Source: Escherichia coli (GTDB taxonomy: Bacteria > Pseudomonadota > Gammaproteobacteria > Enterobacterales > Enterobacteriaceae). Taken from it: DNA of 64,000 nt. Of the stretch, positions 25,855 through 50,061 are shown piece after piece. The notes under the pieces were generated by a model that ran no database searches, was not told where the DNA came from, and was given only the letters and a program-made list of their open reading frames with translations. Position numbers and translations under genes: made by a program. Numbering within the stretch: the stretch's first letter is position 1; every line of letters starts with the position of its first letter. Location of the stretch: assembly GCA_002099625.1 (NCBI GenBank), contig GCA_002099625.1_4857.1. One strand, 5' to 3'.

Positions 25855-25866
25855 GGAGATTTTTGA

Positions 25867-28800
25867 ATGAAAACGTATCCTTACGATCCTCGGGGTGTAA
25901 ATCCTGAGTGTCACTTCATCGAGGAACGTATCATCGACTCCGACAATCCTAACGATCGGGTGGTGATGCTAGATCATCGCCCGTTTTTCGAAGGATTGGT
26001 GGTAAGGCTCGCCGGCTCGTCCATACCGCTTACCCGCGGGACGGACTATGAGCTGGAGTATGCTTTAACACCGTTGGACGACTCGGTGACGACCCCGGTG
26101 TTTTGCGGGGTGCATCTTATTAACCCTAAACTGCGTGGTGCGGTGGTCTTTGAAGGCCAGATGCTCGGGGGTACGTTTTACAGTGGTTTGATTGAGATGT
26201 TGGATGAGCTAGTTAAGGCACTCAACAATCCAACGGCTGCAGATTGGCTGCTTTTAGGTAATCGTCCTTCCCTGTACCCAGCCACTCCTGCAGCGGTAGC
26301 TTGGTCAGACATGCTGAATAAAAAGTATGTTGCCTCTGCAGTGCATGATGTGGAGTTAGATGCCGGGGCGGCCAACGAGCAGATCCGTGAAAAGCTTACT
26401 GAGCTGAAAGATGCGGTTTTGGGCTTAGGAACTGAAATCGCCACATTTAACTACCCCGGACACATTGCGTCCACTAACCCTCATGGGACTACCGCGGCGC
26501 AGGCCGGTGCGCATCCTGTCAACCTGAAAACGCCAGATACTTTCCTGGCGTATGGAAAGACGTTGCGTCAGTTAACCAACGAGGTCCGTGCACTGGGTCT
26601 GCAACAATCGGATATCGACAAGTACATTTCTAAATGGGTGTCGAAAGAATCCAAAGGGGTGTTTAATGCGACGATATCCGGTACTCGTGCCCTGTTCCGT
26701 TCTCCTGCTGGTGAATCCGAAATTGTGTTCTCTGCTGAGGCATTCACTCTTAAATCTAATGGCTCTGTTGTGTTGGCGTGTGGGTATGCCGACACTACTG
26801 GAACCGTCCGGTTTATGGAGTGGAAAGCAGGCATCAATACATTACGTATTGAGTCGACTGGCAGTGCCTTGGGGATGGATAAGCTGACGCTTAATGGTAC
26901 GACGTTACTGACCACAACTGCTCTCATGGGCTATCAACAAGACCCTGGTACCAGCGGTGGTACCGTTGACCCGGATGACAACAAACTGTACATTAGCGGG
27001 GTGAACGGCATTACTTTCACGGGTAAAGGGTCAAAAGCCGATCCCGTCACCGGGAAGGTCACAGCCAAACCCGCGACGACCTCTGAACCTGGCGTTGTGA
27101 CGTTGACCGATAAGCCGAGCGATGTAGTCAAAGGACAAGCAGCCACCCCGGCTTCGCTCTTACCATACGAGGGTGATCTGTCTTCGTACGTCAGGAAGAC
27201 AACGCTGCTGAATAACCAGCCGATGGACACCGGTAGCCGAACGCTAACGAAAAAGGATTTGGGTCTGGACTTGGCTGATAACACAGCTGACGTCGATAAA
27301 CCACTTTCTGATGCGTTGGCAGAAGCAGTTACCGATCTTAGTGATAAAGGTCACCATCACAACTTCGCCGATTTACAGATCCCAACGGCTTCTCAAACAG
27401 TTCCCGGTATCGCTCGATATTCTACCAACCTAAATAGCTTGTCGGATAATCGCGGCGTTACCCCGAACGTACTGAACGATTTGTCAAAACGTTTAGACGT
27501 AGTTGCAGCTGCGCTAGCAAACGCGAAAGAGGACACCGTGACCGATTTTGCCGCTGTGCGCGGTAAGACTTGGACTGTGGGATCTACACGTACCACAGTC
27601 GCCGTAACGGATTTGAATTATTTCTATCTGTTAAATGGTGCACGTAAAGAGGGGACGGTATCTGGTTCGATAGACCTGCAAACCACACCGATGTTCCAGT
27701 GGTTCTCTCCAGATAACCGTATGGAAAGAACGTGGCAGAACGCGGTAATTAATACCGGTGCCGGTATTGATTTTAGTGGGTTTGAGGTTGCCGTCCCGGA
27801 AACGAACTACGGTGCGCAGATTGGTTTAACGACAACCGGAATGGGTGATTTGTCAGTCGTTAACCTCTTGGCGAAAACGTGGGTTCGTTGCGACTCTGGT
27901 AAGCTGCGGATTTGGGTTCGTGGCGGTGGTGCTGTTTCTGTTTATCTGGACGGTGAAATTATCGGTGCGGGTATTACAGAAGCGGGGTATCTGGAGGCGA
28001 CTGTCAAGGAGGGATGGAAGCAACACTGCTTAGCGTTCCGTGCAGAGTGTAACGATAGCGCTAAAGCGGCTGCAATCCGTTTCACAATCTACGACGGTGA
28101 CTTTGCGGTTGGGGCCTCTGATAAAAACACCAAGGTTGCTCGCCTTCAGGAGTTTGTTAAGACTCCGAACGGTTTAAGGCATTACCTTTACGTGAACATG
28201 ATAACCGATGCGTTATATTCACGCGCCGAACCTATTGTGGACACGGAAGGTATTAACCTGGAACGTGGGTATATCGGCCACATTGATGTCCCTGACGCGG
28301 GATTGGTTGCAGGCACGACTTACGAGTTTGAAACGACATTTGATTTTGGCATGGCGTCCGAACTTAAACGGCACTTCGAAACACGTCTAGCACACGGGGT
28401 GAGTAACACCGACTGGTCGTTGACGGATAACCCGAAAATGCTGCCGTTGAATAAGGTTGATCCATTACCTAAACAATGGCTGTATGCGTATCCAACTAAC
28501 CCGTCTGTATCTGGGGATAACCTCGTTCGTTTAGATCGTGGGTTATTTGATTATAAATTCGTAAGTGCCACCTCGCTCAGGATTCTTCTTGCGGCGGTTG
28601 TTTCCACTGAAAACGCGTCCCCGTATTGCTGGTTTACACCAAGCAACCCGAAAGAAAATGGAATGGCGACATTCGAGGGTTCGGTGGTAATCGACACTGA
28701 TTATCCTGAAGTCCCAAAAACCTCGGACGTCGAAGTTTCATTAAACTTCATGGCCCCTTCTGCTGATGGGAAAGGTAAAACCAGAGTCCTGCGGTGGAGT

Positions 28801-29997
28801 AACTCCCACACCAGTTTAAACTGCGGCTTTATTGCTGCGCCGTACGATAAACCAACCGGAAGAATTGCCACCACACAATCCAGCGTTACTAATACGCTGG
28901 TTGATGCTCCTCGTGTAATCAAGAGCGTGGATGTTCAGTCGCCTGACTGTTTAGACTATCTCCCGGTTTCAATCGCTAGCGAGTTCGCAGCCATTGGTTC
29001 GCGCTGGCTTATTCGTTATCGCTATATTGTTGATACGCAGATACTGCGAATATCGTCGATTAGTAAGATAGGTGGGCAGGCTTCGGCGACTGTTCGTGAG
29101 ATAGAATACGACATTCCGTTTGACGCGATTGATTATTTTAAAGGTGGCGCTTTATCGATTGGTGTTACTGGCCTCGAAACTGGTGAAGGCGTCACAATCA
29201 ACCACGGTTTGATGGACCCTTCCACAACAGAAGTGGATTTAAATCGTTTCCATTATCTACGCTCGCTATTTGAGTCGTATATTGAGCGTTCTCCGGACAG
29301 CCAGTCTTCTGGGCATGAGGAGATGTCGATATCAACCGTCGCGTTCGCGAACTTTGGAGATAACGTCGATAACCCGGTTACGGAATACATCACGATGTCT
29401 GCTGCAAGTGAGGGTTATCCGGAACTTGCACCGAACGGTAAACTCCCCGCACCGTTTTACAAAGGGCTGCAGAAACGTGGTGCTCCGCTACTTGAGTCGG
29501 CTCCTGCAGACTATACGTCTAACGGTGGTGAATGGAAGTACGGCTTTATGCGGGCTTATCGCCCAACTCAAAATGAGCGTTTTGTGTCGGTAAATGGGAC
29601 AATGCTCTCTAACTACCCTGGATATATCATCGTGGGTAGTGAGAAAATTCCGGGTAATGTTATACCTTTCAGTGCATCGACAACAGCTGTTCAGATATCT
29701 GGGACTCTTGCCCGCACGAAACCGATGCAGCCAATTCACATCGTGTTCGTGCCTCCGGAAGGTTCTGTGCCGCCGCTGCAAGCGAAGTTCACTATTAACG
29801 GTGTGGGTAGTAGTGGTAATCCGATGTTCGTGATTACTGAAACGACACCGGTGGAACTTCGCACGGGTGGCGAGACGATTCTCATTGAGAAGCGTAATCC
29901 ATTCCACATCCCCACCAGGACATGGGATTGGATTTTACAAACGTTGGATACTGAACGTAGAAACGAAGGCAACAACTCGGGTGAGTGGGCCTCTTAG
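25867..29997 (+). CDS. tail fibre protein 2 (1376 aa)
   Basis: TAAGGAG RBS; motifs HHHNFADLQIPTASQTVPGIARY and KPATTSEPGVVTLT (fibre-repeat-like). Confidence 0.8.
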   Translation: MKTYPYDPRGVNPECHFIEERIIDSDNPNDRVVMLDHRPFFEGLVVRLAGSSIPLTRGTDYELEYALTPLDDSVTTPVFCGVHLINPKLRGAVVFEGQMLGGTFYSGLIEMLDELVKALNNPTAADWLLLGNRPSLYPATPAAVAWSDMLNKKYVASAVHDVELDAGAANEQIREKLTELKDAVLGLGTEIATFNYPGHIASTNPHGTTAAQAGAHPVNLKTPDTFLAYGKTLRQLTNEVRALGLQQSDIDKYISKWVSKESKGVFNATISGTRALFRSPAGESEIVFSAEAFTLKSNGSVVLACGYADTTGTVRFMEWKAGINTLRIESTGSALGMDKLTLNGTTLLTTTALMGYQQDPGTSGGTVDPDDNKLYISGVNGITFTGKGSKADPVTGKVTAKPATTSEPGVVTLTDKPSDVVKGQAATPASLLPYEGDLSSYVRKTTLLNNQPMDTGSRTLTKKDLGLDLADNTADVDKPLSDALAEAVTDLSDKGHHHNFADLQIPTASQTVPGIARYSTNLNSLSDNRGVTPNVLNDLSKRLDVVAAALANAKEDTVTDFAAVRGKTWTVGSTRTTVAVTDLNYFYLLNGARKEGTVSGSIDLQTTPMFQWFSPDNRMERTWQNAVINTGAGIDFSGFEVAVPETNYGAQIGLTTTGMGDLSVVNLLAKTWVRCDSGKLRIWVRGGGAVSVYLDGEIIGAGITEAGYLEATVKEGWKQHCLAFRAECNDSAKAAAIRFTIYDGDFAVGASDKNTKVARLQEFVKTPNGLRHYLYVNMITDALYSRAEPIVDTEGINLERGYIGHIDVPDAGLVAGTTYEFETTFDFGMASELKRHFETRLAHGVSNTDWSLTDNPKMLPLNKVDPLPKQWLYAYPTNPSVSGDNLVRLDRGLFDYKFVSATSLRILLAAVVSTENASPYCWFTPSNPKENGMATFEGSVVIDTDYPEVPKTSDVEVSLNFMAPSADGKGKTRVLRWSNSHTSLNCGFIAAPYDKPTGRIATTQSSVTNTLVDAPRVIKSVDVQSPDCLDYLPVSIASEFAAIGSRWLIRYRYIVDTQILRISSISKIGGQASATVREIEYDIPFDAIDYFKGGALSIGVTGLETGEGVTINHGLMDPSTTEVDLNRFHYLRSLFESYIERSPDSQSSGHEEMSISTVAFANFGDNVDNPVTEYITMSAASEGYPELAPNGKLPAPFYKGLQKRGAPLLESAPADYTSNGGEWKYGFMRAYRPTQNERFVSVNGTMLSNYPGYIIVGSEKIPGNVIPFSASTTAVQISGTLARTKPMQPIHIVFVPPEGSVPPLQAKFTINGVGSSGNPMFVITETTPVELRTGGETILIEKRNPFHIPTRTWDWILQTLDTERRNEGNNSGEWAS

Positions 29998-29999
29998 GA

Positions 30000-30074
30000 C
30001 GGACTGCCTACGGGCGGGTAGTCCGTAGGTAAACCGCCCTTCCGTTATTGGGAGGGCGGTCTCCGTTTTATTAC
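30000..30074 (+). terminator. tandem hairpins followed by T-run (terminator/attenuator, approx coords)
   Basis: Hairpin 1 CGGACTGCCTACGGGCGGGTAGTCCG; hairpin 2 CCGCCCTTCC-GTTATT-GGGAGGGCGG, then TCTCCGTTTTATTA. Confidence 0.5.
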
Positions 30075-30092
30075 AGATTAGGAGTGTTTGCA

Positions 30093-33000
30093 ATGCCGAG
30101 AGAAGATGCGGCGCAGTTTAACGGTACCCTCAGTACCGCTACTTACCCGAACCGTTATTCGACGGTCATTCCCGTCGAAGCACCGTTCTATCGCATCGGG
30201 TTAACGTTAACCGTTACCGATAAAACAACCGGAACCAAACGCAAGTTAATAGAAGGTCTTGATTATTTCTTAGGACATTACTTCCAGGAATTAGCCGAGG
30301 CTGAGAACGATGCAATATACGGCAGCATAATGCTGCTGAACGCCACAGAGGTAGAATACGAGTTGTTGTCGGTTGGTCGACAGTATCGCATCCCTGCTTC
30401 TGAAATCGGCAAGTATCTGGTTAAGACGGATATGAAAGACCCACGCAACTGCGATTGGTCTGAGCTGATGAAATATCCGCCGATTATCTCGCCAATCGAC
30501 CCGCCAAAAGATCTCGAAGAAGCCATCCTTCGCGATGAGATTGTAAAGGCGCTGGAAGATATCCGACTGGGCATTTTAGAACGTGCCCACGAACTGGATG
30601 AGGCTTTTGCCGAAGTTACCGATTTGATTTATCAGAACGGTAAAAAGGTGTTTGATGACGAAATGTATCAACACCATCTGATTAAAAATGCACATGGTTA
30701 CACCTGTGGCGATATCGGTGCACTCCCTGTGCTCGGTAAGGCCGTGGATGCGACTAAGGCGTTTGGACGTACACTGGCAGAGTTAGTGACGCTAATGTCT
30801 ACCAGCGGTATCCAACAGAAACATGTTGACATGCTTCTGGATAATACCCTGGGTGATTTACTGGGCCGTATGCGTGTTCTGAATAACGACGCGATTACGT
30901 TCCAAACAACGTCTGGCCACGTTATCAGCATGAAGGGTGAGAAGTTCATCATCACCTCGACAAAACCGCTGGTATTAAAAGCTGACCAGGATAACAACGA
31001 ACCGGGTATCGCTACGGAGTTCAGTGCTGGTCTGAACACGCTTTGGGTTCACTCGGGTAAAGCAGGTGACAAGTGGGGCGCTTATGATGCAGGTGTGCTT
31101 GCTCCTGTGTATAACAGCGTCTATCTCGTTACACCGGATATGGTTAAGATGTACTTGACCTCGGTGAAGATACTTCCAGCAAACGCCTACTTCAAGTCCA
31201 GCGACACGTTGAAGATTTACGGCTCTGGTAAAGAAACAAACAAAGTTTACATGAATGCGGAACTGCCTGCAGCAACCACAACTGTGCAGGGCTTGTTTGC
31301 GATTACTAACCTTTCGGCGTCCGCTGCAGCGTCCACAGCGATTTCCCAAAAAGCTGTTACTGACTTGAAGAACAAACTAGACGGATATGTGGACGACACG
31401 TATACGGTCAATGGTAAAGGGTTTGTGTTAGACGAAAACGGTCAAATGCATTTAACATTAACCGCGTCGGATTTCGGTATTGAGAAGATGAACAATACCG
31501 GACCGCTGGAGAAACCGGTTACTAATGCGTTGCGCACCGTGCTATCAGGCAAGGCACTCTCAACACACACCCACACCATTGCTGATCTCGATAACGTGCC
31601 GTACGCATCCACGTCTGTTACAGGTTTGGCTAAACTGTGGGATGCTATTGACACCACAACAGATAAGATGGTTACTGCCCGCCAGGGTTTCTTGCTCGAA
31701 CAGAAAATCGGTACACTGAATGACAAGATTGCTACGTTGTTGCCGGCATGGACCGTTGGCGGATCATCGTACGGCAACAATAACTTCTTGCCTATACCTG
31801 TCCAGGGGAACTACGAAGGGTACACCAAAAACCAAACTTGGCAAAAAGGACTGGCGCGTTACGAGGCTGGTAAGGTTTACTCGTTGCGTAATGGTTCCAA
31901 CGGGAACCCGCCAGGTGACTGGGCTATCTATTACGCCTATGCTGATGTGTCGCCAAGCAATACGCTGGAAAATATGCAGCAGACGTCCGTACGTTATCAC
32001 CCCGCTGGAATGTCGGCGTATCCTGGGGTGAATCTGGTTGCTATTCTGATTACCGGTACAGATGCAATGATCTGCTTAGGCAGTGACTATGCGTATTATC
32101 TGGTCATCTTTGACGGCACCATTGACCATGCAAAACATCATCGCGTTGTTAAAGTTTACTTGGGCGATTACCGAAATGGTAACGCGGCCGGTGTGATTAC
32201 AACCACACCATGGGTTGCCGATCCATCAACAAACGATTTGATCGTTTGCAACGATCGGGTTTATCTACTCCGCACTGTCCTTACCTCCGGTGACTATTTC
32301 GTGAGTATGCGTAGCATCGCACTCAACGAACTTAATCTGGGTGGTAGCAACACGTTTGTGGCGGATGTGTTAACAGGTGGGATGTTAACGTCGGGAGATA
32401 ATATCTACTTGCGTCAGGGTCAGAAACGTTCTGATACAGATGTGTTGGTAGCGCCAGTAACACAAATCTACGCAGATGCATCGGCGAAGTGGAATAGTGC
32501 GCGAAATTTCGTCCATGGTCCGGAATGTAATCACGCGATTGCTGTGGATGGGCTGAACTTTCGTGTTGGTTTAACGCCAACAGTCTGGTTTGCTTCTACT
32601 ACAGGGCAAACTATTAACTTTAAACAATGGGTGTCAAGCTTTGTTGTTGATTGCAGTTCAATGACGGTAACGCTGGAAGGTGCCGATCGATTCCCTATCG
32701 TGGCCGATCTTACCACGGTCCGTTATAACGGCGGGGCTGAGATTGGGATTCCGAGCCGGAAGTGGGGCGAAGGTCAAGCTAATAACCGAACCTTTGCAAC
32801 ATCGCAAGACAAGTATATTGTTTCGCAAGGACATGCAGGCGATCGCGACCTAATGCCTTATGTCACGATTACAACGTTAGATGACGGTGTGAGTTGGTAC
32901 GAGTACCTGTCGTGTGACTACAACTTCACTGCCAGAAGTTTTAGTGCGGTAATGTTAAACCAAGGTCGTGGTTCTATCTACGAGCTGGGTATGGCGTATC

Positions 33001-35276
33001 CGCTGACTCTGGGAGCGAATTCCAGACTTATCTGGTTGTCACAACCGCGTTCCCGTTTGGCAATTGAAGTTGAGTTTGATCCGAACACCACTTACTCAGG
33101 TAAGGCGGGGTATGGCCCAACTAACAATCGTCGTGTAGTAGATTCTATCACGTATGAGAATCTGTCGCAGATGTGCCACATTGTTACACCGGCGTCGCCT
33201 GGTACAGAGTTAAACGGCTGGTATTGCACAGGACCAGAAACATTCCCTTACCACAACGTTTCCGGCACTTTCACGATTCATGCCGATCGATTGACGCTGT
33301 CACAAGCTGAATGGGATAAGATGAAGCAGATGATCATCGACGGAGCACCGGCAGGCGCTGCGAATGGTTATGCTTCGGAATTTATCCTTGCTGCAAATAA
33401 CGCAGGAAAGGCATTGTTTTCCGTTTGGTTCATCGGCATCGGAACGGCCACACCGCTCACATTAGCACAAGTAGCATGTACACGTACTGTGAACAATGTT
33501 AACTTGTTAGATATCTACTACTTTACACTGAAACCAACAATCAGCAACGGGCAGGTAACATTCCCCGCAGCGATATTGGCACTGTTTGACTTCTATAACA
33601 ACCTCGACTATGGCTTGAACTATGCTACGTTGGGAGAGATAACGGGAGGAAAAACACGCCGGCCGGGACAACCTACCATGGTGTCGGTAGATGGTACGCA
33701 GTTCGGGTTGTATCTTCCACACACGTTAACCTTGCGCCAGATTGGCGACTTGGGTGCGCTTAACTACGCTGCTGGTCTTACGCTGTCTAATGGTACCTGG
33801 ACGCGTTCTTCTGCACCACACGGCGTTGGACGTATGGCACCGTCACACACTCCAGTCAGCCCAGCTTATCTGGCTCATCGTGATCAGGTGATGCTACACA
33901 ACTCATCTCTCGACTACGTCTATTGTGGTGGTATCGCAATGTCGTCGAGTGATTTTGTTGCACGTCCGAGTTTCGGTGGGGCGACTGAGACTGTTGTTAT
34001 CGCCGGTGTGGAAACAGCCGAAGGTTGGCTGGTATATGTGACTGAGGAAGTTAACCTGCGTTTCGGCTCGAGCACTTATAAGCTGCCTACGTGGTATATT
34101 GACCTCAGCGCAGCGTTTCCAACAAACCATCAGAACCGGACATTCTACCTGCACGCTAAGGTAGAAAATGGTACACCGAAGTACGTAATGGACGTGGTTC
34201 AACATCCAGACACTGAAACGGAACTCTACATCGGGTATGTTAAAACGGGCTCGTCGCGAGTCGTCGAGACTAACGTCGACCATGCTAAGCGATTGGGGGC
34301 GGTAAAACAGCTGTTGGAACACGCGGCGGTTGAGAATAAGCATGATGTGGAAGTGGGAAGGGATGCAGCAACGGGCAGACTGGCACCATTGCGTAAAGAA
34401 GCGATGGGTCCTTTGTCAGTCGATGCTACGAAAGGCTATCTGGATAGTCAGTTGCTTTATACCGTATCTGACGCACAGCGTCGCGGTAAAGCGATGGTGT
34501 CCAAACGTTTCGAAGGCTTGAAAACTTTGCCGGCGTTTACTCAGGCAAACAAGTCGGGGGCGTTTTGGAAACATCCTACAACAATCGCGACGGTAACGGC
34601 CGACGAGAACAGTGAAGCGACATCGTTGGGTATGGAGTGGGTAGGTATTCCAACGCCCGCTTTCGCTCCGACTTCAACAAACTTGATGGTGGTGGTGCAA
34701 AGTAAATTCGTCGTCCCAGGTACACTGGGAGTAGAAACGACCTTTAATGTCCACGTTGCCCCATGGGAGGCGGTGGATGGCTTTTTCTACAACGTCGAGG
34801 CGGAAGGTACGGATGTTAACATTGACGAAAATCCAGAAGTGTTATTGCCGTCACCACATACCGTGCACCACAAACAGCACTCTCTGCCAGCAGGCGTGCC
34901 GTGCACCTTTACATTTGTCGCGGCGGTAAGTTCTTCAGCGCTCGAAACAGCTAACCAGCATATTTGCTCTTGGCTTTTCACGGACGCTGGGGGTCTACCA
35001 ATCACCACCGATCTTTCGGATAGTAAGATTCAAATCTTACCACAGTCGGGAGAGACCAACGGCACACCAGTTGTTCTGAACAGTCGTAGCTACACGTTTA
35101 CGAATGTGACAGGTGCAATCCCGGTTGTTACCACGGGCGCTCAGGGTTTATTCCCACCACCGATCGTGGCGTGGGATGGCGATGATCTTACGTTAACGAT
35201 TGCGCACGATTGGGTGAACGAGAGAGGACGTCAACAGCCTGATATTATCCAGGTCAATCTTATGTTCCGTACCTAA
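30093..35276 (+). CDS. tail fibre protein 3 (1727 aa from Met16 of track ORF 30048..35276)
   Basis: GGAGTG RBS 6 nt before internal ATG; motifs HTHTIADLDNVPYASTSVTGLAKLW and PAATTTVQGLFAIT. Confidence 0.8.
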   Translation: MPREDAAQFNGTLSTATYPNRYSTVIPVEAPFYRIGLTLTVTDKTTGTKRKLIEGLDYFLGHYFQELAEAENDAIYGSIMLLNATEVEYELLSVGRQYRIPASEIGKYLVKTDMKDPRNCDWSELMKYPPIISPIDPPKDLEEAILRDEIVKALEDIRLGILERAHELDEAFAEVTDLIYQNGKKVFDDEMYQHHLIKNAHGYTCGDIGALPVLGKAVDATKAFGRTLAELVTLMSTSGIQQKHVDMLLDNTLGDLLGRMRVLNNDAITFQTTSGHVISMKGEKFIITSTKPLVLKADQDNNEPGIATEFSAGLNTLWVHSGKAGDKWGAYDAGVLAPVYNSVYLVTPDMVKMYLTSVKILPANAYFKSSDTLKIYGSGKETNKVYMNAELPAATTTVQGLFAITNLSASAAASTAISQKAVTDLKNKLDGYVDDTYTVNGKGFVLDENGQMHLTLTASDFGIEKMNNTGPLEKPVTNALRTVLSGKALSTHTHTIADLDNVPYASTSVTGLAKLWDAIDTTTDKMVTARQGFLLEQKIGTLNDKIATLLPAWTVGGSSYGNNNFLPIPVQGNYEGYTKNQTWQKGLARYEAGKVYSLRNGSNGNPPGDWAIYYAYADVSPSNTLENMQQTSVRYHPAGMSAYPGVNLVAILITGTDAMICLGSDYAYYLVIFDGTIDHAKHHRVVKVYLGDYRNGNAAGVITTTPWVADPSTNDLIVCNDRVYLLRTVLTSGDYFVSMRSIALNELNLGGSNTFVADVLTGGMLTSGDNIYLRQGQKRSDTDVLVAPVTQIYADASAKWNSARNFVHGPECNHAIAVDGLNFRVGLTPTVWFASTTGQTINFKQWVSSFVVDCSSMTVTLEGADRFPIVADLTTVRYNGGAEIGIPSRKWGEGQANNRTFATSQDKYIVSQGHAGDRDLMPYVTITTLDDGVSWYEYLSCDYNFTARSFSAVMLNQGRGSIYELGMAYPLTLGANSRLIWLSQPRSRLAIEVEFDPNTTYSGKAGYGPTNNRRVVDSITYENLSQMCHIVTPASPGTELNGWYCTGPETFPYHNVSGTFTIHADRLTLSQAEWDKMKQMIIDGAPAGAANGYASEFILAANNAGKALFSVWFIGIGTATPLTLAQVACTRTVNNVNLLDIYYFTLKPTISNGQVTFPAAILALFDFYNNLDYGLNYATLGEITGGKTRRPGQPTMVSVDGTQFGLYLPHTLTLRQIGDLGALNYAAGLTLSNGTWTRSSAPHGVGRMAPSHTPVSPAYLAHRDQVMLHNSSLDYVYCGGIAMSSSDFVARPSFGGATETVVIAGVETAEGWLVYVTEEVNLRFGSSTYKLPTWYIDLSAAFPTNHQNRTFYLHAKVENGTPKYVMDVVQHPDTETELYIGYVKTGSSRVVETNVDHAKRLGAVKQLLEHAAVENKHDVEVGRDAATGRLAPLRKEAMGPLSVDATKGYLDSQLLYTVSDAQRRGKAMVSKRFEGLKTLPAFTQANKSGAFWKHPTTIATVTADENSEATSLGMEWVGIPTPAFAPTSTNLMVVVQSKFVVPGTLGVETTFNVHVAPWEAVDGFFYNVEAEGTDVNIDENPEVLLPSPHTVHHKQHSLPAGVPCTFTFVAAVSSSALETANQHICSWLFTDAGGLPITTDLSDSKIQILPQSGETNGTPVVLNSRSYTFTNVTGAIPVVTTGAQGLFPPPIVAWDGDDLTLTIAHDWVNERGRQQPDIIQVNLMFRT

Positions 35277-35323
35277 CAGATAGCGCTATGGGGCAAGGAA
35301 GCCCCAATCAAAGGAGTTTGGCA

Positions 35324-36526
35324 ATGGCCGAAATCATTTATCAGTACCCGCTTGACCTTACCGGGACATTAACGTCGAACGCCGTTACGCGGCGTATTAC
35401 GTTAGGTTCTGGTAAAGTTAACCGGGCTTTTGCATTTCCTGACGGAGCTTTCTACGCGGATACCTTCCGCTTGGCGGCTGCGAATAAACCAGGTGTCTAC
35501 CCGTACAAACGCGGCACAGACTACGAACTGATTTTTGCACATACTGCATATCAGAAAATGACCAAGAACCGCGAAGTGGTCATGGGTGTGGTGGTAACTA
35601 ACTCGGCCATTCCTACTGATATCGAAGTCTCTGCGCAAGTCGTTGGTGGTTTTCAGTCCGCGAACGTCGAAGGTATCCGACAAGCGATTGCGTCGTTGAA
35701 AATTGAAGACCGTGTGGTGGACTTCAAGGATCTTCGAAACGTACCTGATACGTTCCCATCCGCCCCGACGTATAAAGACCTTGGCGATATCTACGGTTTT
35801 GAGTATATCATTACCGTACTCGCTGGGATTAAAGATGCGATTAACTCCGGCTCTGCAGTACAGCTGGAAGAAATCAAAGGTATTCTGGACGGTCTGAAAA
35901 ACGACTTCCTCGATGCCTTAAATGCCCACGTCAACGCCGAAGGTAACGTACACAATCTCGACATTCATCAGGTTAATGGCCTGACGGAGACGGAGATTCG
36001 TGCTCTGATTCAAAGTGTACAGACTGCCATTGACGCCACTATCAAAGATATCGGCGACTTAAGAGCAGCAGACACGGCGTTGGGACAACGCATCGATGCA
36101 GTTGTGGCTTCGTTAGCCGCGTGGAACGACCAGCTTAATGTAGTTGCTCAAAATTACCAGAAAATGTCGTTAGCATTAGCTAACCTTAATTCTCTGGTGT
36201 TGCAATTACAGAAGAAGGTTAACGATCTTCAGTCTGCGCTGAATGAAACAAATCAGCGTGTCACGGATCTTGAGAATCAGGGCAAAGACTTCCAACAGCA
36301 AATTGATAACCTGCAAGGACAAATCAACAGTCTTAAAACTCAGGTTGTAAACAACACCAACGCAATTTCGCAGGCAAACCAGAATCTGGCGAACCATGCG
36401 GCTGCGGATAACCCACACCCGAATTACCTCCATAAACAGTATGGCGGTGTTGTGCAGGCTGCTGTTCACGTCAACAACAACCTCACCTCGCGCGACGATG
36501 TTCAAGCTGAAGCGGGTACTAAGTAA
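35324..36526 (+). CDS. tail-fibre-associated coiled-coil protein (400 aa from Met13)
   Basis: AAGGAG RBS 7 nt before internal ATG; N-terminus resembles those of the three large fibre genes (RGTDYELIF...); long Q/N-rich coiled coil. Confidence 0.7.
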   Translation: MAEIIYQYPLDLTGTLTSNAVTRRITLGSGKVNRAFAFPDGAFYADTFRLAAANKPGVYPYKRGTDYELIFAHTAYQKMTKNREVVMGVVVTNSAIPTDIEVSAQVVGGFQSANVEGIRQAIASLKIEDRVVDFKDLRNVPDTFPSAPTYKDLGDIYGFEYIITVLAGIKDAINSGSAVQLEEIKGILDGLKNDFLDALNAHVNAEGNVHNLDIHQVNGLTETEIRALIQSVQTAIDATIKDIGDLRAADTALGQRIDAVVASLAAWNDQLNVVAQNYQKMSLALANLNSLVLQLQKKVNDLQSALNETNQRVTDLENQGKDFQQQIDNLQGQINSLKTQVVNNTNAISQANQNLANHAAADNPHPNYLHKQYGGVVQAAVHVNNNLTSRDDVQAEAGTK

Positions 36527-36539
36527 CTTGTTTACGAGC

Positions 36540-36580
36540 CGGACTATGTTTATGGACATAGTCCGCTCGTTCTACTTTTT
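36540..36580 (+). terminator. rho-independent terminator/attenuator (approx coords)
   Basis: 9-bp stem CGGACTATG/CATAGTCCG, 8-nt loop, then CTACTTTTTAA; lies between fibre operon and first Cys-rich peptide gene. Confidence 0.5.
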
Positions 36581-36591
36581 AAGGAAGCGTA

Positions 36592-36984
36592 ATGGCGATA
36601 TCTATTAAAGACGTCAGAAACCGCGTCCAGATAGTCGAAGCTAACATGGCGACAGGCCCCCGTATCGACGCGCAAGTGGCCTCTAAAGCCCATAATGCGG
36701 CAGACCGATTTGGGGGTTGGACGAAAGCACAGCTAGATTGCGGCGGGACATGTTCTTGGACGTGCTCTAACGGTTGCTCGCATGGCTGTTCGAGCTGTTC
36801 AGGAAGCTGTTCTGCTTCTTGTATCGGTAGCTGTTCTTCGACGTGTGGCGGTAACTGTTCTGGTTGCTCTGGTTGTTCTGGTGGTTGCAGTAGTAGCTGT
36901 ACCGGTAACTGTTCAGGTGGTTGCGGCGGCTCTTGTTCCGCAAACTGCTCCGGGGCCTGCTCCGGCGGCTGTTCAGGTCGCTAA
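36592..36984 (+). CDS. Cys/Ser/Gly-rich precursor-like peptide P1 (130 aa): ~50-aa leader-like N-terminus plus 21-Cys repeat core
   Basis: AAGGAAG RBS; N-terminus MAISIKDVRNRVQIVEAN...; core DCGGTCSWTCSNGCSHGCSSCSGSC... with Cys every 3-4 residues; ends CSANCSGACSGGCSG. Confidence 0.65.
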   Translation: MAISIKDVRNRVQIVEANMATGPRIDAQVASKAHNAADRFGGWTKAQLDCGGTCSWTCSNGCSHGCSSCSGSCSASCIGSCSSTCGGNCSGCSGCSGGCSSSCTGNCSGGCGGSCSANCSGACSGGCSGR

Positions 36985-36994
36985 GGGGGATTAA

Positions 36995-37399
36995 ATGGCA
37001 ATTGGATTAAAAGAACTGAATAACCGATTAAACACGATCGATGCAAACGCTTTAAAGAACACCACGAATGTGCAAAACTACATTCGCAATAAAGCTACGA
37101 ATAACGCCGACTTGTTCGCAGGTCAAGGCCGTTCGCACTATGACTGTGGCGGCACATGCTCTTTTAGTTGCTCGAGTTGTTCTGGCGGGTGTACTGGGTC
37201 CGCTACGGGTGGTTGTGGGTCGACTTGTTCCGCAAACTGTGTATCGGGCTGTAGCAGCAGCTGTACGGGCTGTAGCTCTTCGTGCTCGGGTGGTTGTAGC
37301 GGCACGTGCACAGGCAGCTGTTCTGGGGGTTGTGGTAAATCCTGCTCCGCAAACTGCTCAGGTGCGTGCTCTGGTGGTTGTTCAGGTCCTAACTCCTAA
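36995..37399 (+). CDS. Cys/Ser/Gly-rich precursor-like peptide P2 (134 aa)
   Basis: RBS AAGGGGG; N-terminus MAIGLKELNNRLNTIDAN... paralogous to P1; core about 21 Cys; same C-terminal CSANCSGACSGGCSG block. Confidence 0.65.
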   Translation: MAIGLKELNNRLNTIDANALKNTTNVQNYIRNKATNNADLFAGQGRSHYDCGGTCSFSCSSCSGGCTGSATGGCGSTCSANCVSGCSSSCTGCSSSCSGGCSGTCTGSCSGGCGKSCSANCSGACSGGCSGPNS

Positions 37400-37414
37400 C
37401 TGACGGAGGCTTAT

Positions 37415-37621
37415 GTGATCAGTCTCAAGGCTATTCGAAACCGTCTCGTTACGGCAGAAGGTTACATTACAACCGCACAGGCAAACAACTATATCGCTAA
37501 CCAGGGCACCGTGTCAACCACGAACAACCTGGCTGGTTTACCGCTTTCCCACTATAACTGTAATGGTGGGTGTAGCTGGTCCTGCAGCGGAAGCTGTAGC
37601 CGTGGAGCGGGGAATCGATAA
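37415..37621 (+). CDS. short precursor-like peptide P3 (68 aa, 4 Cys), probable GTG start
   Basis: RBS ACGGAGG; N-terminus (M)ISLKAIRNRLVTAEG shares leader motif with P1/P2; core NCNGGCSWSCSGSCS. Confidence 0.5.
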   Translation: MISLKAIRNRLVTAEGYITTAQANNYIANQGTVSTTNNLAGLPLSHYNCNGGCSWSCSGSCSRGAGNR

Positions 37622-37643
37622 CAGAAAACGTTCGGAGTATTAA

Positions 37644-38531
37644 ATGAAAAACGATTTGCATCTTGCGTATAAAACCACATTCAACCACCCGCTGCATCTA
37701 TCTTCCCCAGACTCGGTGCGTGCACACCTCGCTGACAAAGTCAGACTGATTGCACAGATTCCTGGTGAGTGGCCAAAGGTTCGTGGTCGCTTCTTGACCG
37801 ACAAGAAGAACTACACCGTAGAAAATACGTTTAAGATCCGTGATATGGTTGCAGAGGCCATCGTTATCTTTAACGGCGATGGTAACTCTCGCGGCGTGTT
37901 AGTCGACGGTAAGTATTTCTTCAGTGAAGGGATTTTGAACAACAGCGTCGATTTAGAACTGATGTTTACACCGTTTGACGAACTTGAAGCAAAACCGATG
38001 GCGCGCCGTTGGTGGAGTCCGGACTATCTGGGCTCGTTCCCTTACTACTTTGTACTGGTACCTGCCGATACGGAAACGTATTTCGACACCGAACCATACA
38101 TCGATATCGAGGGGTATAAAGAACTCGGCATCACCCGTTTAGCGGACATGATGGCGTATAGCTATAAGTTCGTGTGGGATAAAAAGCGTTCTGTCTGGTA
38201 TGCGCTGACTGACGATTTTGAAATCACCAAGCGTATTCGTAAGCCGTGGATGCAACACCTGGTTCAAACTCGATATGGGGATTACCCGGCGACAGAAGCG
38301 GATTTGAGTAAGCTGGTAAGTTTCCTCTTAACGAAGGTGGATTTAACGAAAGAAGAAGCAGAAGCTGTTTCTGAGATTCGTGGTCGTTCGGTAACGTTGG
38401 CCGATTTGAAACGTCTGAACGAAAGACACGCCGACCTGAACAAAATTTTAGCTGCCTATCACGACCCGATGTTACTGGTGCCTGGCGCTAACGTAGACGA
38501 AGATCCTTTATTCGCCATTGATTATATTTAA
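37644..38531 (+). CDS. hypothetical protein (295 aa) in peptide/rSAM operon
   Basis: ORF with RBS, between peptide genes and rSAM genes; no motif recognised. Confidence 0.65.
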   Translation: MKNDLHLAYKTTFNHPLHLSSPDSVRAHLADKVRLIAQIPGEWPKVRGRFLTDKKNYTVENTFKIRDMVAEAIVIFNGDGNSRGVLVDGKYFFSEGILNNSVDLELMFTPFDELEAKPMARRWWSPDYLGSFPYYFVLVPADTETYFDTEPYIDIEGYKELGITRLADMMAYSYKFVWDKKRSVWYALTDDFEITKRIRKPWMQHLVQTRYGDYPATEADLSKLVSFLLTKVDLTKEEAEAVSEIRGRSVTLADLKRLNERHADLNKILAAYHDPMLLVPGANVDEDPLFAIDYI

Positions 38532-38553
38532 AAATATACTGGAGCAACCTGCA

Positions 38554-39468
38554 ATGACAGATCAAGTAGAATCCAGGATCTCGTCTGAACTGTACGACAA
38601 ACCGTCAATTCTGTCGGTTGTCGCAACTTCTAAGTGTAACTTAGACTGTAGCTTCTGTGGAGGGGCTTATTACATGGATAGAGAAGATACTTCTCGTGAG
38701 TTTCAACGTGAAGAGATTCTCTCGATTTTAGAGAAGAATCCGGATATCGGTGAGATTCATTGGACGGGCGGTGAGCCGCTGTTAGCGCAGCGTAAGATTG
38801 AAGACTTCGTGAACGAGTTGAAGGAGTCTCATCCGAACCTCCGTCATCACATGTACACCAACGGTTTAAAGATGCGTAAATCACATCTGCCGTTGCTGAA
38901 ACAGTTCGACCTTATCTTTGTGTCCATTGACGGCTACAAGAAGTCGGAACGTCCGTTTATGAACTTTGTAAACGGTGGTAATCACGAAGCGCTGGAAGTG
39001 CTGTACGAGCTGGACAATTATTACACCTGGGGTGTGATGACGCGTGACCAGTTAGGCGATAAACGCTGGTACGAAGATTTCATCGAGCTGCACCGAGCAA
39101 TCTATCATTACCGTCCAGGTGGTGTGTCGTTGTTGTTTGATGCGATGATGCCGAAACCGTTATCGCCAGACCACGTCATGAACTTCATGTACGGGTATTG
39201 GAAAATACTCGACAATATCGAACGCCTTAACATGCAGAACGACTCTGAATGTGGGCTTGCGATCAGTAAAATGTTCGATACCGAGTGCAACACGTGCAGT
39301 GAAGTGCTGTGGCTTAACGCCGACGGTACGCAGGAGCAAATTCAGAACGCCCCAGAGATATTGGAAGTCGGCTGTAATCGCCTGGCGCGTTCTATCGGCG
39401 TTGATGCGTATAACTACATCAACCGTGTAATTTCTGCTAAGCGTAAACGGGCGGCGAACAATGAGTAA
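38554..39468 (+). CDS. radical SAM enzyme 1 (304 aa from Met13)
   Basis: CNLDCSFCGG (C-x3-C-x2-C) near N-terminus; WTGGEPLL glycine-rich SAM motif; additional C-terminal Cys (C-x12-C-x2-C...C) suggesting an auxiliary cluster. Confidence 0.75.
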   Translation: MTDQVESRISSELYDKPSILSVVATSKCNLDCSFCGGAYYMDREDTSREFQREEILSILEKNPDIGEIHWTGGEPLLAQRKIEDFVNELKESHPNLRHHMYTNGLKMRKSHLPLLKQFDLIFVSIDGYKKSERPFMNFVNGGNHEALEVLYELDNYYTWGVMTRDQLGDKRWYEDFIELHRAIYHYRPGGVSLLFDAMMPKPLSPDHVMNFMYGYWKILDNIERLNMQNDSECGLAISKMFDTECNTCSEVLWLNADGTQEQIQNAPEILEVGCNRLARSIGVDAYNYINRVISAKRKRAANNE

Positions 39469-40789
39469 TAGCGAACAGCAAATCCAGTACACACCACGCA
39501 CGTATCAGGTTGTGACTAACCTGTCATGTAACCTGGACTGCGAATACTGCTACGAGCGTAAATATCCGCGTAACAACAAAGTAGCAGACGTGATTGATTT
39601 TATCCACGCTTGTTTCGAGCGTGATAAAGATATCCCGAACGTTGAAGTCATCATCGATATCATCGGTGGTGAGCCGTTCATGCAGCCTAAACTTCTTTTG
39701 GCGGCCTTTGAAACCGCAGAGAAGTTATGCGCAGAACACAATCGCCCGTATATGTTCAGTATCTCCACGAACGGTACGCTTCTGGACCGTCCGCTGAACA
39801 AAGAAATTATCGAGCGCTGGAAAGACAAACTGTCTATTGGGGTCTCCATCGATGGTTTACCTGAAGTCCATGACAAATATCGTATCTTTACCACGACGCG
39901 TGAAGGGTCGTACGAAGCTGCGGTACGCGGTTACAATTATCTGAAGAGTGTTGGCATCGCTGAACTGGGCGTAAAAGCGACGTTTACGATCGATACATTG
40001 CCGCACTATGCCGCCAGCATGAAATCGTTAATTGACATGTCCGGCGGTGGTACCATTTCTGGTAATGTAACGTACGAAGATATCCTGCCGCGCCATATGG
40101 CGTTGGATATCGCGAACCAGATGATGGACGTGATGGACTACTGGATTGAGAAGGGTCTGCACACCAACCCGCGTAACACGATTACACACATCATCCCGGA
40201 TGGCCTGAACTTTATGGCAACTTGGGACCCGGATTGGCGTGACAAACTCTTGCACGACGACTCTGTTCGTCTCGACCCAGAACGCCTGAAACCGTACTGC
40301 GGTACGTTGACGCACATGACCTGTCTCGGCTTTGATCGCAAGATTTACGGTTGTAACCGTTTCATGTCCACGGTAACTTCCCGCTCTGCTGTAGCGGAAC
40401 TGGTCGGTCGTGAGTTTGTGAGTCTGGACGGTGGTAAGCTGTTAGAAGAGATTCAAACGCAGTACACCAACTACCCAGAAACCTGTTTAGGGTGTCCGAT
40501 GAAGCACAGCTGCGGTAGCTGCGCAGCAGCATCGTACGAAAACGGTGAAGGTACACTGGAAGACCGTAAAGCGTATCACGCCGAGCGTCGTCAGTGTGGT
40601 TGGACTACTGCGAAGCTGATGGCGGCGGAATATTGGTATCAAAAAACTGGTACGACTCGCGCATCAGATTTGCACGATAAATCCATGTGCTATTGTTCAC
40701 GTTGTGTACGCCAACGTGCCGAAGCAGAAAAATTACAAAACGGAGCCCAGAATGAAGTCAATACTGATTCACAATTTTACGAAGCGTAA
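39461..40789 (+). CDS. radical SAM enzyme 2 with SPASM-like C-terminal domain (442 aa)
   Basis: CNLDCEYC (C-x3-C-x2-C); IIGGEPF; C-terminal Cys cluster CGTLTHMTC...C...CLGCPMKHSCGSC typical of SPASM/twitch; start overlaps rSAM1 stop by 8 nt. Confidence 0.8.
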   Translation: MSNSEQQIQYTPRTYQVVTNLSCNLDCEYCYERKYPRNNKVADVIDFIHACFERDKDIPNVEVIIDIIGGEPFMQPKLLLAAFETAEKLCAEHNRPYMFSISTNGTLLDRPLNKEIIERWKDKLSIGVSIDGLPEVHDKYRIFTTTREGSYEAAVRGYNYLKSVGIAELGVKATFTIDTLPHYAASMKSLIDMSGGGTISGNVTYEDILPRHMALDIANQMMDVMDYWIEKGLHTNPRNTITHIIPDGLNFMATWDPDWRDKLLHDDSVRLDPERLKPYCGTLTHMTCLGFDRKIYGCNRFMSTVTSRSAVAELVGREFVSLDGGKLLEEIQTQYTNYPETCLGCPMKHSCGSCAAASYENGEGTLEDRKAYHAERRQCGWTTAKLMAAEYWYQKTGTTRASDLHDKSMCYCSRCVRQRAEAEKLQNGAQNEVNTDSQFYEA

Positions 40790-41318
40790 ACTGCACTTGG
40801 TCGATCGCTTCCTGCGCAAAAGCAAGCTGTACAATGTGCACGCAATTGTGGCAGGGGAAGACTTCACTGATGAAATCCAAAGCCTGTTGATTAAATACGG
40901 GCTGAATGTGATGATCCCGGTCTACTGCGTTGAGAAAGGACACGAGTCTGTCGCGGAAATCGAAAAGCGCAACCCTGGCTTTGAGAAGCGACTGCTTGCA
41001 TACCCACGCCACAAAATCGAACTGCTACGTCACTCTATTGATGAAGCCAGTCCTGAAAGTTTAGTGGCATTGGGCTTGTCATTCCCGCGGATGCGTATTC
41101 GTAACTTACGCTCCAATAACCCGGTTGACGCTTATTACACAGAACGTCAAATCTTCGAAGAACACCTGCTCCCGCAGTTGGAAGAAGAAGAGCAACACAA
41201 CATTTCTCTGTTGTGGGCCGGTAACCTCGATCAGGACTTCCAGATGCTGGACTTCGGTTTGTTGTTAGAACTTGGCCTGATTGAGGAGGACGAATGTCTG
41301 TTACTGACAAAAGCTTAA
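40752..41318 (+). CDS. hypothetical protein (188 aa from Met17)
   Basis: ACGGAG RBS before internal ATG; overlaps rSAM2 3' end. Confidence 0.55.
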   Translation: MKSILIHNFTKRKLHLVDRFLRKSKLYNVHAIVAGEDFTDEIQSLLIKYGLNVMIPVYCVEKGHESVAEIEKRNPGFEKRLLAYPRHKIELLRHSIDEASPESLVALGLSFPRMRIRNLRSNNPVDAYYTERQIFEEHLLPQLEEEEQHNISLLWAGNLDQDFQMLDFGLLLELGLIEEDECLLLTKA

Positions 41319-41965
41319 CGAACGAAGAGATCCGCGCCCGTTATTTCCAGCGCGATTTGCCGATTGATCGTCACGGTAATTTCATGGAACGAATCGGTGC
41401 GCAGGATCAGGGTCGTACTGGATTTTGTGCATTACTCCATTACCATCTCATCGAAGGGATGTCTGATAAAGAAGCCCTGGCACGCATGAAGCTGTATGAG
41501 ATGTCGGAGATTGAAGCTAACTTCACATTGAAACGCACGAAAGAGTTTATTGCTAATGTGCTGGAGATTGACCTCGACGAAATTCGCGGGAATCTGAAAT
41601 CTACCGCACGTTACATTTACGAAGACGTGCAGAAGATGCTGTTGGAACTTGACCATCGCTACGAAGATGAGCGCCATGGTTATATCGAGTTTGAAGGTAG
41701 CCACTTTCAAGCCGATGAATCGTCGCGTACCATCCTCGGTCAATATATTCAGGCGGATACCGCACCAGAATACTGGCTCGATACGCTGAATACTAAGCAC
41801 AGTCCGTTTACAGTAGACCAATGTAAAGCGTTGTTGGCCGCTATTGTTGCACGTGACCAAGTGTTGCACTCAGCAATGGCAGATAACAAACGCCAAATCC
41901 GTGAGTTGGCTGAAAAGCGCGATTACACTGGATTAAAAACATTGTCCGAATCTCTCGGCATGTAA
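41294..41965 (+). CDS. hypothetical protein (223 aa), last gene of operon
   Basis: GAGGAGGA RBS; followed by strong terminator. Confidence 0.6.
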   Translation: MSVTDKSLTNEEIRARYFQRDLPIDRHGNFMERIGAQDQGRTGFCALLHYHLIEGMSDKEALARMKLYEMSEIEANFTLKRTKEFIANVLEIDLDEIRGNLKSTARYIYEDVQKMLLELDHRYEDERHGYIEFEGSHFQADESSRTILGQYIQADTAPEYWLDTLNTKHSPFTVDQCKALLAAIVARDQVLHSAMADNKRQIRELAEKRDYTGLKTLSESLGM

Positions 41966-41967
41966 GC

Positions 41968-42024
41968 AAAGAAAATAAAGGCCCTACCTCCCCGAAGGGA
42001 GGTAGGTACCTTTTATTTATTTCT
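41968..42024. terminator. bidirectional rho-independent terminator (approx coords)
   Basis: 10-bp stem CCTACCTCCC/GGGAGGTAGG, GAA loop, A-run before and TTTTATTTATTT after. Confidence 0.7.
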
Positions 42025-49144: not shown

Positions 49145-49155
49145 ATTAGCTCCTG

Positions 49156-50058
49156 TTAGCTAAGAACCAGTTCGATAACGTGGACTACCGACGCGCTATT
49201 GGTCGAAGAGGTGTACGATGGTAAGTCTGGTGAGCCGCTGCGATAATACCACGGGCTGGCGTTGTCATAACCGTTGGCAAACAATGTTGCGGTTGACTCG
49301 GTTGGACTACTGCCGGAGCGCGTCGGTAAGTCGCCAAAACGTCTTACGATGCCCGCGTACCGGAACAAGCTTGCGAACGTGTTGTGCCACTCGCCGTCTT
49401 GAAAATAACCACCGCTGCTTAGGTAGGTGCTGTGCCCATAACTGTAGTCTCCGAGTCGAGGCAAACGTACCACATACTCGTAACCGTCTTTATTAAATGT
49501 CCGACGCTGGTTAGTGGTAGTGACGCTCCGCGGCGGGAAACCGTAGTCATCTGTTCCCCAGGCCAGACCTTGCTGGTATTGTTCGTTCCACGTCGTCCCT
49601 AAACGGGTCACCGTGTCAGGAATGAACAGAATGCGTCCTTTGAAAACGAATTTATGGAACAATGTTGGAGCTTGGTTCCAGGCATTAAAGCCAATTAAAC
49701 CATTCAGCTCGGCATGGTTAAGAATAAATTCTTCGTTTGTCAGTGTGCCAAAGTAGCCACGATGCCAGTCGCCACGAATAAGTTCCTGTGGGCCGGGTCC
49801 TGTCATTGGAAAGTCGCCCTGTACAATCGGCAGCCCCATAACCTTTTCAGTGCCCTTTACCGCCACGATGCGATATTGATACGTTTTATACGCTTCGGTG
49901 GTCTTGTCCTCGTACGTCGTTGTGTTACCTGGTAGTGTTACAATAGGTTCCCCCGGTGCTACTGGGTTAACATTTTGTCTGGGGTTGTCGTAACGATAGA
50001 TTTCAATGGAATCCAAAGTCTGACCTGGCTGTTGTTTCCAGTTTAAGATAATCGACAT
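49156..50058 (-). CDS. module gene A1: fibre-like protein with FN3-like N-terminus (300 aa)
   Basis: GGAG RBS; motif FPMTGPGPQELIRGDWHRGYFGT shared with A2/A3 and the C genes. Confidence 0.75.
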   Translation of the reverse strand: MSIILNWKQQPGQTLDSIEIYRYDNPRQNVNPVAPGEPIVTLPGNTTTYEDKTTEAYKTYQYRIVAVKGTEKVMGLPIVQGDFPMTGPGPQELIRGDWHRGYFGTLTNEEFILNHAELNGLIGFNAWNQAPTLFHKFVFKGRILFIPDTVTRLGTTWNEQYQQGLAWGTDDYGFPPRSVTTTNQRRTFNKDGYEYVVRLPRLGDYSYGHSTYLSSGGYFQDGEWHNTFASLFRYAGIVRRFGDLPTRSGSSPTESTATLFANGYDNASPWYYRSGSPDLPSYTSSTNSASVVHVIELVLS

Positions 50059-50061
50059 GTT

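Follow-up and report, generated by a model that had tools for sequence, protein, structure and literature searches.

Cysteine-repeat proteins encoded beside radical SAM enzymes within an SPN3US-like jumbo-phage tail-fibre operon: candidate cross-linked tail-fibre components

We analysed a 64,000-nucleotide stretch of DNA (contig GCA_002099625.1_4857.1, deposited under Escherichia coli; hereafter the window) in which three consecutive genes encode small cysteine-rich proteins, referred to here as P1, P2 and P3. A 6.7-kb stretch around this triad is 98–99% identical to the Salmonella phages 1252, SPN3US and the SPFM series and to Escherichia phage Lh1B, and on this similarity the window is assigned to an SPN3US-like jumbo myophage of the genus Seoulvirus. 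The three genes are:

36592–36984, + strand: P1, 130 amino acids (aa), with a 49-aa N-terminal region, the junction D-C-G-G-T-C-S-W and an 81-aa core that contains all 21 Cys
36995–37399, + strand: P2, 134 aa with 20 Cys, a paralogue of P1
37415–37621, + strand: P3, 68 aa, GTG start, with the N-terminal region and junction followed by a short Cys-containing stub

Shine-Dalgarno-like sequences lie 5–8 nt 5′ of P1, P2 and P3 (AAGGAAG, AAGGGGGA and ACGGAGG, respectively). The proteins begin with MAIS, MAIG and VISL, and none carries an RR motif. Among PHROG and Pfam entries P1–P3 match only phrog_6085 (E 5e-40 for P1), to which no function is assigned, and no tail-fibre domain was recognised in them.

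An earlier note on this DNA, written from the letters alone, had described an N-terminal motif and a junction motif common to all three peptides, and both are borne out by alignment. Across 21 family members, C50, G52, C54 and S55 of the junction are invariant and W56 is nearly so, with the conserved pattern [LF]-x-G-x4-[HY]-Y-x-C-x-G-x-C-S-W; peptides such as VQIVEANMATGPR and IDAQVASK exemplify the N-terminal region. The view of P3 as a shortened version with four Cys also stands, since the N-terminal region and junction are kept ahead of a 4-Cys stub. The count of about 21 Cys in each long core is right for P1 and slightly off for P2, which has 20. Most Cys are spaced Cys-x-x-x-Cys as had been said (17 of the 20 gaps in P1 and 16 of the 19 in P2), and over 20 orthologues 331 of 396 inter-Cys gaps are of exactly four residues. 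The consensus of the repeat unit is C-S-G-[G/S/T], with about 16% Cys, and would-be acceptor positions hold Ser, Gly, Thr or Asn, never Asp.

P1–P3 are real, constrained genes, and comparative sequence analysis proves their frame. The triad was recovered from ten phages of five genera (Seoulvirus, Machinavirus, Erskinevirus, Derbicusvirus and Wellingtonvirus), with DNA identity down to about 64%, and from two metagenomic phage contigs, giving 12 phages or phage contigs in total. The P1–P3 frame contains no stop in any of the ten orthologous genomes, while every other frame is interrupted in most of them. Both in the leader and in the core, substitutions are 2.2–3 times commoner at third codon positions than at the first two. 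Cys columns are invariant at 19 of 23 positions in P1 and 20 of 23 in P2. The Cys count of P1 is exactly 21 in each of the 11 jumbo-phage relatives examined, that of P2 is 20–23 and that of P3 is 2–4; the divergent contig L019 encodes two long peptides with 15 and 16 Cys and a short peptide with 2.

The possibility that an alternative frame is the true one, which the earlier note had singled out as fatal to its reading, was thus addressed directly. A different set of genes is indeed implied by several GenBank records. SPN3US gp166 (window 37068–37403) is a wrong, Val/Ala-rich +1 frame of P2, and the records of Huxley, CR5, Phobos and pEa_SNUABM_29 place opposite-strand open reading frames (ORFs) at the locus; several others annotate nothing, and all three genes are annotated only in Lh1B and EC001. 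If these records were right, P1–P3 would be untranslated in the frame given here. We allow this virtually no chance: only the P1–P3 frame is open in 10/10 genomes, the wobble-position excess falls in it, its Cys columns are invariant, each start has its own Shine-Dalgarno sequence and the proteins are homologous to an independent family. Alternative frames and strands are accordingly ruled out as true genes at this locus. Most GenBank records inspected mis-annotate the triad and, because P1–P3 are unannotated or placed in the wrong frame there, published proteomics has been blind to them.

The DNA of the triad is only weakly repetitive. Tandem Repeats Finder (TRF) returned a 24-nt unit ×2.4 at 76%, a 9-nt unit ×2.7 and a 12-nt unit ×2.8, and all six Ser codons are used. 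The earlier description of the DNA as low-complexity is not supported by these weak, short arrays and the full use of Ser codons. Slippage or copy-number change, suggested on the same grounds, is contradicted by the weak arrays and by the constant Cys count of P1 (21 in 11/11 relatives). Near-identical isolates show a single indel, in a 7-nt tandem duplication of TCCTAAC (×2.1) at the P2 stop (37387–37401, with one copy at 37387–37393). One copy of TCCTAAC is missing in SPFM4 and MET_P1_082_240, and P2 therefore ends GPN rather than GPNS in these two.

An identical 15-residue block near the C termini of P1 and P2 was confirmed: CSANCSGACSGGCSG occupies residues 115–129 of P1 and 117–131 of P2. 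The underlying DNA matches at 38 of 45 bases, and all seven differences are synonymous. The identity is strain-specific, SPN3US P1 having CSSSCSGACSGGCSG instead. Ten of the 11 differences between the window P1 and SPN3US P1 fall in a 37-nt patch at 36912–36948 (P2 counterpart 37321–37357), within which the window P1 carries TCCGCAAACTGCTC (14 nt), identical to P2. This pattern suggests that a short P2-to-P1 gene conversion may have occurred in the patch, which would explain why the block is identical in P1 and P2 here and not in SPN3US.

An AlphaFold2 (AF2) monomer model of P2, built from a 26-sequence alignment, has an overall predicted local distance difference test score (pLDDT) of 49.6. 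Residues 5–33 are modelled as a helix, at pLDDT about 70, whereas the Cys core is unstructured and scores about 40, a result compatible with either a disordered substrate like that of a ribosomally synthesised and post-translationally modified peptide (RiPP) or an oligomeric fibre. Immediately downstream lie two radical S-adenosylmethionine (SAM) enzymes, rSAM1 and rSAM2, and two accessory genes:

37644–38531, + strand: gp165-like accessory protein, 295 aa, specific to the triad/radical SAM module
38518–39468, + strand: rSAM2 (radical SAM enzyme 2, SPN3US gp164), PF04055 at E 1e-15, CNLDCSFC motif
39461–40789, + strand: rSAM1 (radical SAM/SPASM enzyme 1, SPN3US gp163), 442 aa, 100% identical to the SPN3US protein, TIGR04115-like
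40704–41318, + strand: gp162-like accessory protein, phrog_7988, with a homologue in the divergent L019 module

Together with the Cys peptides these form a seven-gene module (two long and one short Cys peptide, gp165, rSAM2, rSAM1 and gp162) that is intact in the very divergent phage contig L019. The gp165-like protein gave a confident model (pLDDT 87.7), for which we found no convincing structural neighbour and no PqqD-like match.

rSAM1 carries CNLDCEYC at residues 23–30 (CxxxCxxC) and, towards its C terminus, the SPASM Cys pattern YCG...C...GC and CLGCPMKHSCGSC...C. Its best NCBIfam match is TIGR04115, the radical SAM peptide maturase of the CXXX-repeat target family, at 125.6 bits against a cut-off of 350. 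The second is PapB at 113.6 bits against 340, with profile positions 12–319 of 330 aligned; the SCIFF maturase model gives 53.9 bits (cut-off 425) and the sactipeptide maturase RumMC 48.3 bits (cut-off 720). The best match among PDB structures is CteB (5wgg), which aligns only from its residue 106 (query residue 22) onward, so that rSAM1 lacks an N-terminal RiPP recognition element (RRE). rSAM2 is homologous to the only radical SAM protein found next to a Cxxx protein on truncated T7-like contigs.

The CXXX-repeat family has been defined by comparative genomics and curated hidden Markov models and comprises the TIGR04114/TIGR04117 targets, the TIGR04115 maturase, TIGR04119, TIGR04116 and PF27846. 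P1, P2 and P3 score 18.4, 17.1 and 13.7 bits against TIGR04114, where the cut-off is 20, and P2 reaches 12.8 bits of the 50 needed for TIGR04117. Their relatives carry PF27846 (tSAM_targ_Cxxx_rpt) as weak matches. A profile search of the family led to contig L015, which encodes a peptide with a twin-arginine translocation (Tat) signal and the core start L-D-C-N-G-S-C-S-W, a TIGR04115 enzyme (625 bits, cut-off 350), TIGR04119, TIGR04116, TatA and TatC. Aligned end to end, rSAM1 shares 25% identity with this TIGR04115 member (E 5e-22). Given the link to the TIGR04115 family, the full-length homology to the L015 maturase and the shared core start, RiPP-like radical SAM maturation of P1–P3 is well supported, and with it the proposal, made at the level of sequence, that they are duplicated substrates of such a system.

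The phage and bacterial systems have in common a Cys every four residues, separated by small ones, the core start C-x-G-S-C-S-W and an adjacent radical SAM/SPASM enzyme. They differ in that the phage module lacks TIGR04119, TIGR04116, a Tat signal and TatAC and has instead a second radical SAM enzyme together with gp165 and gp162. Neither gp165, gp162 nor rSAM2 gave any NCBIfam match, and hhalign and BLASTP comparisons with the L015 TIGR04119 protein were negative. Furthermore, the phage targets have a helical N-terminal region in place of a signal peptide, and the phage module sits in a tail-fibre operon as a fixed triad. PADLOC returned only generic radical-SAM-core similarity to viperins. 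The canonical bacterial system on L015/L016 (8001–11809), with its TatA/TatC genes, adjoins an integrase and a P22-like portal, so the exported CXXX version, too, rides on a mobile element or prophage. In a separate metagenomic protein, P0240, a Hint/intein-like domain (CCFPAGTKVL; Hom_end_hint, 22 bits) comes straight after the Cxxx tract, an arrangement that suggests autoproteolytic release or ligation of the Cxxx segment in some systems.

PapB and CteB are SPASM enzymes that make Cys thioethers, the bond in ranthipeptides running from the Cys sulfur to an acceptor carbon other than the alpha carbon, with PapB acting on freyrasin, with its repeated C-x3-D units, and CteB on SCIFF/thermocellin. 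The likeness of the phage system to these ranthipeptide systems lies in rSAM1, a SPASM enzyme with PapB as second-best family and CteB as best structure. It is limited by the acceptors, which in P1/P2 would be Ser, Gly, Thr or Asn and not Asp, by the number of potential donors (about 20 against about 6), by the missing CteB-type N-terminal RRE and by scores below the PapB and SCIFF cut-offs. The sactipeptides (subtilosin/AlbA) share the radical SAM thioether logic with Cys as donors, and Prokka labels one of the radical SAM genes 'albA' in SPFM2; they have a few nested S–Cα bridges, whereas P1/P2 have 20–21 evenly spaced Cys. The earlier comparison of the Cys spacing with sactipeptides is therefore not upheld: the nearest enzyme relatives are CXXX-repeat and ranthipeptide maturases, and RumMC scores 48.3 bits against 720.

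The same Cys-rich tracts could bind metal or Fe–S clusters without any covalent modification, P1–P3 then being metal-stapled fibre segments, a metallothionein-like sink or a cluster donor for the two radical SAM enzymes. The Cys content of about 16% with its regular spacing would suit this, as would the use of Tat by the bacterial homologues, a route typical of cofactor-loaded or folded proteins. Metals do occur in some phage fibres and tail tips: T4 gp37 binds Fe through His-x-His motifs and lambda gpL holds a [4Fe-4S] cluster, so that ligand-type residues recurring along a distal part of the tail or fibre have precedent. In those cases there is no dedicated maturase, whereas here radical SAM enzymes travel with the Cys tract. 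Indeed, Cxxx proteins are strictly coupled to dedicated radical SAM/SPASM maturase homologues in five unrelated contexts, which points to enzyme–substrate pairs, and known metal-binding domains do not resemble this Ser/Gly-rich tract, for which no fold is predicted. We regard unmodified metal-binding proteins as quite improbable.

The position of the module points to the tail. The triad cluster is co-oriented with, and tightly packed behind, gp170–gp167, which in SPN3US are baseplate/tail-fibre candidates and virion proteins, and the gene order around it is identical in five jumbo-phage genera. By mass spectrometry of SPN3US virions, gp167 is an abundant non-head virion protein, and gp161–166 are absent from purified particles; this absence is as expected if the enzymes and accessory proteins are maturation factors.

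Homologues in other phages carry the same association further. The leader motif, which the earlier note had marked for a wider search, recurs in homologues from other phages. On L014, from a T7-like podophage, the genes run from tube, nozzle and internal virion protein through a 180-aa protein with the T7 fibre N-terminal domain (PF03906) and a 132-aa fibre-like protein to the Cxxx protein P0017 and then a radical SAM gene. P0017 is paralogous to its 132-aa neighbour over residues 1–87 (41% identity, E 1e-15), matches a tail-fibre PHROG (phrog_5073) over residues 11–69 and aligns over residues 91–156 with the whole of P3, leader included. The structural block of a SU10-like podophage contig (L026) contains a BppU_N-like protein (weak, below the Pfam cut-off), a Cxxx protein, a radical SAM protein, a 247-aa protein and a second radical SAM protein. 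P0047 combines the Cxxx module with phrog_5073; its sequence GDADTLDGQHGSYY-RCESGCSW resembles a common tail-fibre motif. The junction and Cxxx module are also joined to a T4 gp34/gp9-like region (P0076, phrog_967/972), to PTR phage-tail repeats (P0213, Desulfoluna), to collagen-like repeats (P0207) and to a CBM5/12-like fibre head (P0195). Several P3 orthologues (P0042, P0028, P0019, P0046 and P0067/68) have an extra C-terminal domain of 70–150 aa whose sequence looks beta-rich; P0042 lies on an SPN3US-like contig (L020) with otherwise the same gene order. Such added domains follow the swappable distal-domain pattern typical of receptor-binding proteins. The N-x-A-D-x-L-x-G...Y motif was not found in the window's own big fibre proteins.

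These arrangements bear on whether P1–P3 are instead a classical RiPP natural product, in which the 49-residue N-terminal leader would be removed and the cross-linked Cys-rich cores would diffuse at lysis as an antimicrobial, metallophore or signal. Much of the architecture is what such a product would have: a leader helix with a disordered core in the P2 model, an adjacent radical SAM/SPASM enzyme of the thioether RiPP-maturase clade, bacterial homologues that are small exported peptides and an invariant [LF]-x-G eight residues before the first Cys that could be a cleavage site. Among the operon genes, however, Pfam, NCBIfam and PHROG matches and annotation gave no protease or peptidase, no exporter or transporter, and no Tat signal or Tat genes, and by inspection the SPN3US prohead-protease motif A-x-E is absent from the N-terminal regions of P1–P3. 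Moreover, homologues of the T7-like, SU10-like and PTR-fused kinds have the 'leader' in an internal position, folded-looking C-terminal domains follow the Cys stub in P3 orthologues, and the tail-fibre operon position is fixed across five jumbo-phage genera. Since the leader–junction–core unit occurs elsewhere behind tail-fibre N-terminal domains, P3 orthologues bear C-terminal domains and no protease or exporter accompanies the genes, the 'leader' is probably not disposable. A module such as that of L019, away from obvious tail genes, would sit more easily with a diffusible product. We judge a classical RiPP unlikely, and of the earlier proposal of a duplicated leader–core RiPP family we retain the duplicated radical SAM targets beside a TIGR04115-like enzyme and give up the disposable leader.

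With belief and doubt evenly balanced, we propose instead that P1–P3 are tail-fibre-associated, enzyme-cross-linked (probably thioether) 'CXXX-repeat radical SAM target' proteins that form small parts of the tail-fibre/baseplate apparatus. P1–P3 would be translated late, from the tail-fibre operon (about 22141–41965). The maturation enzymes would recognise the amphipathic N-terminal helix (about residues 5–33, hydrophobic at 5, 8, 12, 15 and 19) together with the junction, and the two would probably double as a docking or oligomerisation element. rSAM1 and rSAM2, helped by gp165 and gp162, would then modify the Ser/Gly tract with its Cys at every fourth residue, most likely into a series of S–C thioether bridges. 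Covalent stapling of this kind would turn a disordered tract into a rod that withstands reduction and proteases, made in a reducing cytoplasm where disulfides cannot form. The cross-linked product would stay with the virion, with no cleavage or export. The sequences establish the genes with their frame and conservation, their family relationship, the neighbouring enzymes, the operon setting and the fusions with tail-fibre domains elsewhere; we infer the thioether chemistry, the incorporation into virions and what rSAM2, gp165 and gp162 do.

Several observations weigh against this proposal. The Cys core of P2 has no predicted fold, and P1–P3 themselves have no recognisable tail-fibre domain. 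The scores of rSAM1 are far under the curated cut-offs, and to our knowledge the chemistry of the CXXX-repeat family has not been determined so far. The bacterial CXXX homologues are Tat-exported small proteins and not virion parts, and the L019 module is not beside obvious tail genes. A leader-only profile run against 1.84 billion proteins found 20 matches, nearly all of them family members, with two marginal bacterial repeat proteins bearing an L-D-x-R-V-x-x-I-E-x-D-Y motif; the P1–P3 leader is therefore not a widespread domain. SPN3US proteome searches were blind to P1–P3, which are unannotated in JN641803, so incorporation into the virion is inferred. Modified P1–P3 might also act outside the particle, as a transient scaffold or chaperone for the giant fibre proteins gp168–170 that is then discarded, an assembly role that we consider very improbable.

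More broadly, and with doubt somewhat outweighing belief, we suggest that several unrelated lineages, namely SPN3US-like jumbo myophages, podophages of the T7-like and SU10-like types and gut phages, make a tail-fibre part from a Cys-every-fourth polypeptide stapled into thioether rings by RiPP-type radical SAM enzymes; in the jumbo phages the fixed P1/P2/P3 triad may assemble as a heterotrimer. In the literature we found no paper on CXXX-repeat systems, nor on radical SAM maturation of phage tail proteins or tail fibres; 'enhancing host metabolism' is the role given to the radical SAM genes in a genome paper on the SPFM phages, which belong to this clade. If the proposal is true, P1–P3 would be the first virion structural proteins matured by radical SAM cross-linking, a cytoplasm-compatible substitute for disulfides, and RiPP-style radical chemistry would serve the construction of virus particles beyond secreted natural products. 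It would give a reason for the two radical SAM genes of the SPN3US-like jumbo-phage clade. SPN3US, with its amber-mutant genetics and virion proteomics, would offer a tractable model for the CXXX-repeat family. The product itself, a Ser/Gly/Cys rod stapled about every four residues, would be an unusual material with a bearing on receptor binding and virion robustness.

The other features of the locus are:

about 22141–41965, + strand: tail-fibre/radical SAM operon, with short gaps or overlaps between genes, closed by the terminator at 41983–42006
35288–36526, + strand: gp167-like coiled-coil virion structural protein (phrog_2163), immediately upstream of the triad in every jumbo-phage relative
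36534–36570 (36580 by a wider count), + strand: strong RNA hairpin with a U-rich tail, between the gp167 stop and the P1 start (dG −24.1 kcal/mol, z −3.7)
41294–41965, + strand: DUF4376 protein (gp161-like; PF14301, E 2e-9), with a weak tail-protein PHROG match, last gene of the operon
41983–42006, both strands: bidirectional intrinsic terminator with a perfect 10-bp stem (7 GC pairs), before the next gene (− strand)

The genes from the gp165-like gene to the DUF4376 gene overlap or nearly abut. The hairpin between gp167 and P1 might set the ratio of gp167 to P1–P3 expression, whether by partial termination, by attenuation or through an effect on RNA stability. Annotated relatives start at internal ATGs, and the listed ORF starts of rSAM2 (38518, TTG), gp162 (40704, GTG) and gp167 (35288, ATG; against 35324) are probably too far upstream. 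The likely start of rSAM2 is the ATG at about 38554 (304 aa), and that of the gp162-like protein lies at about 40752 (188 aa).

Besides its copy of the module, contig L019 has genes for GroEL, for one more (third) radical SAM protein and for an anti-CBASS hairpin protein like Acb2/Tad1 (3271–4455 and 8220–8441). Elsewhere in the window, at about 49150–63760 on the − strand, lies a long head-to-tail array of ORFs of roughly 280–500 aa; from its position relative to gp156–170, this array probably represents the SPN3US 'paralog family B' head proteins (PMC5694885).

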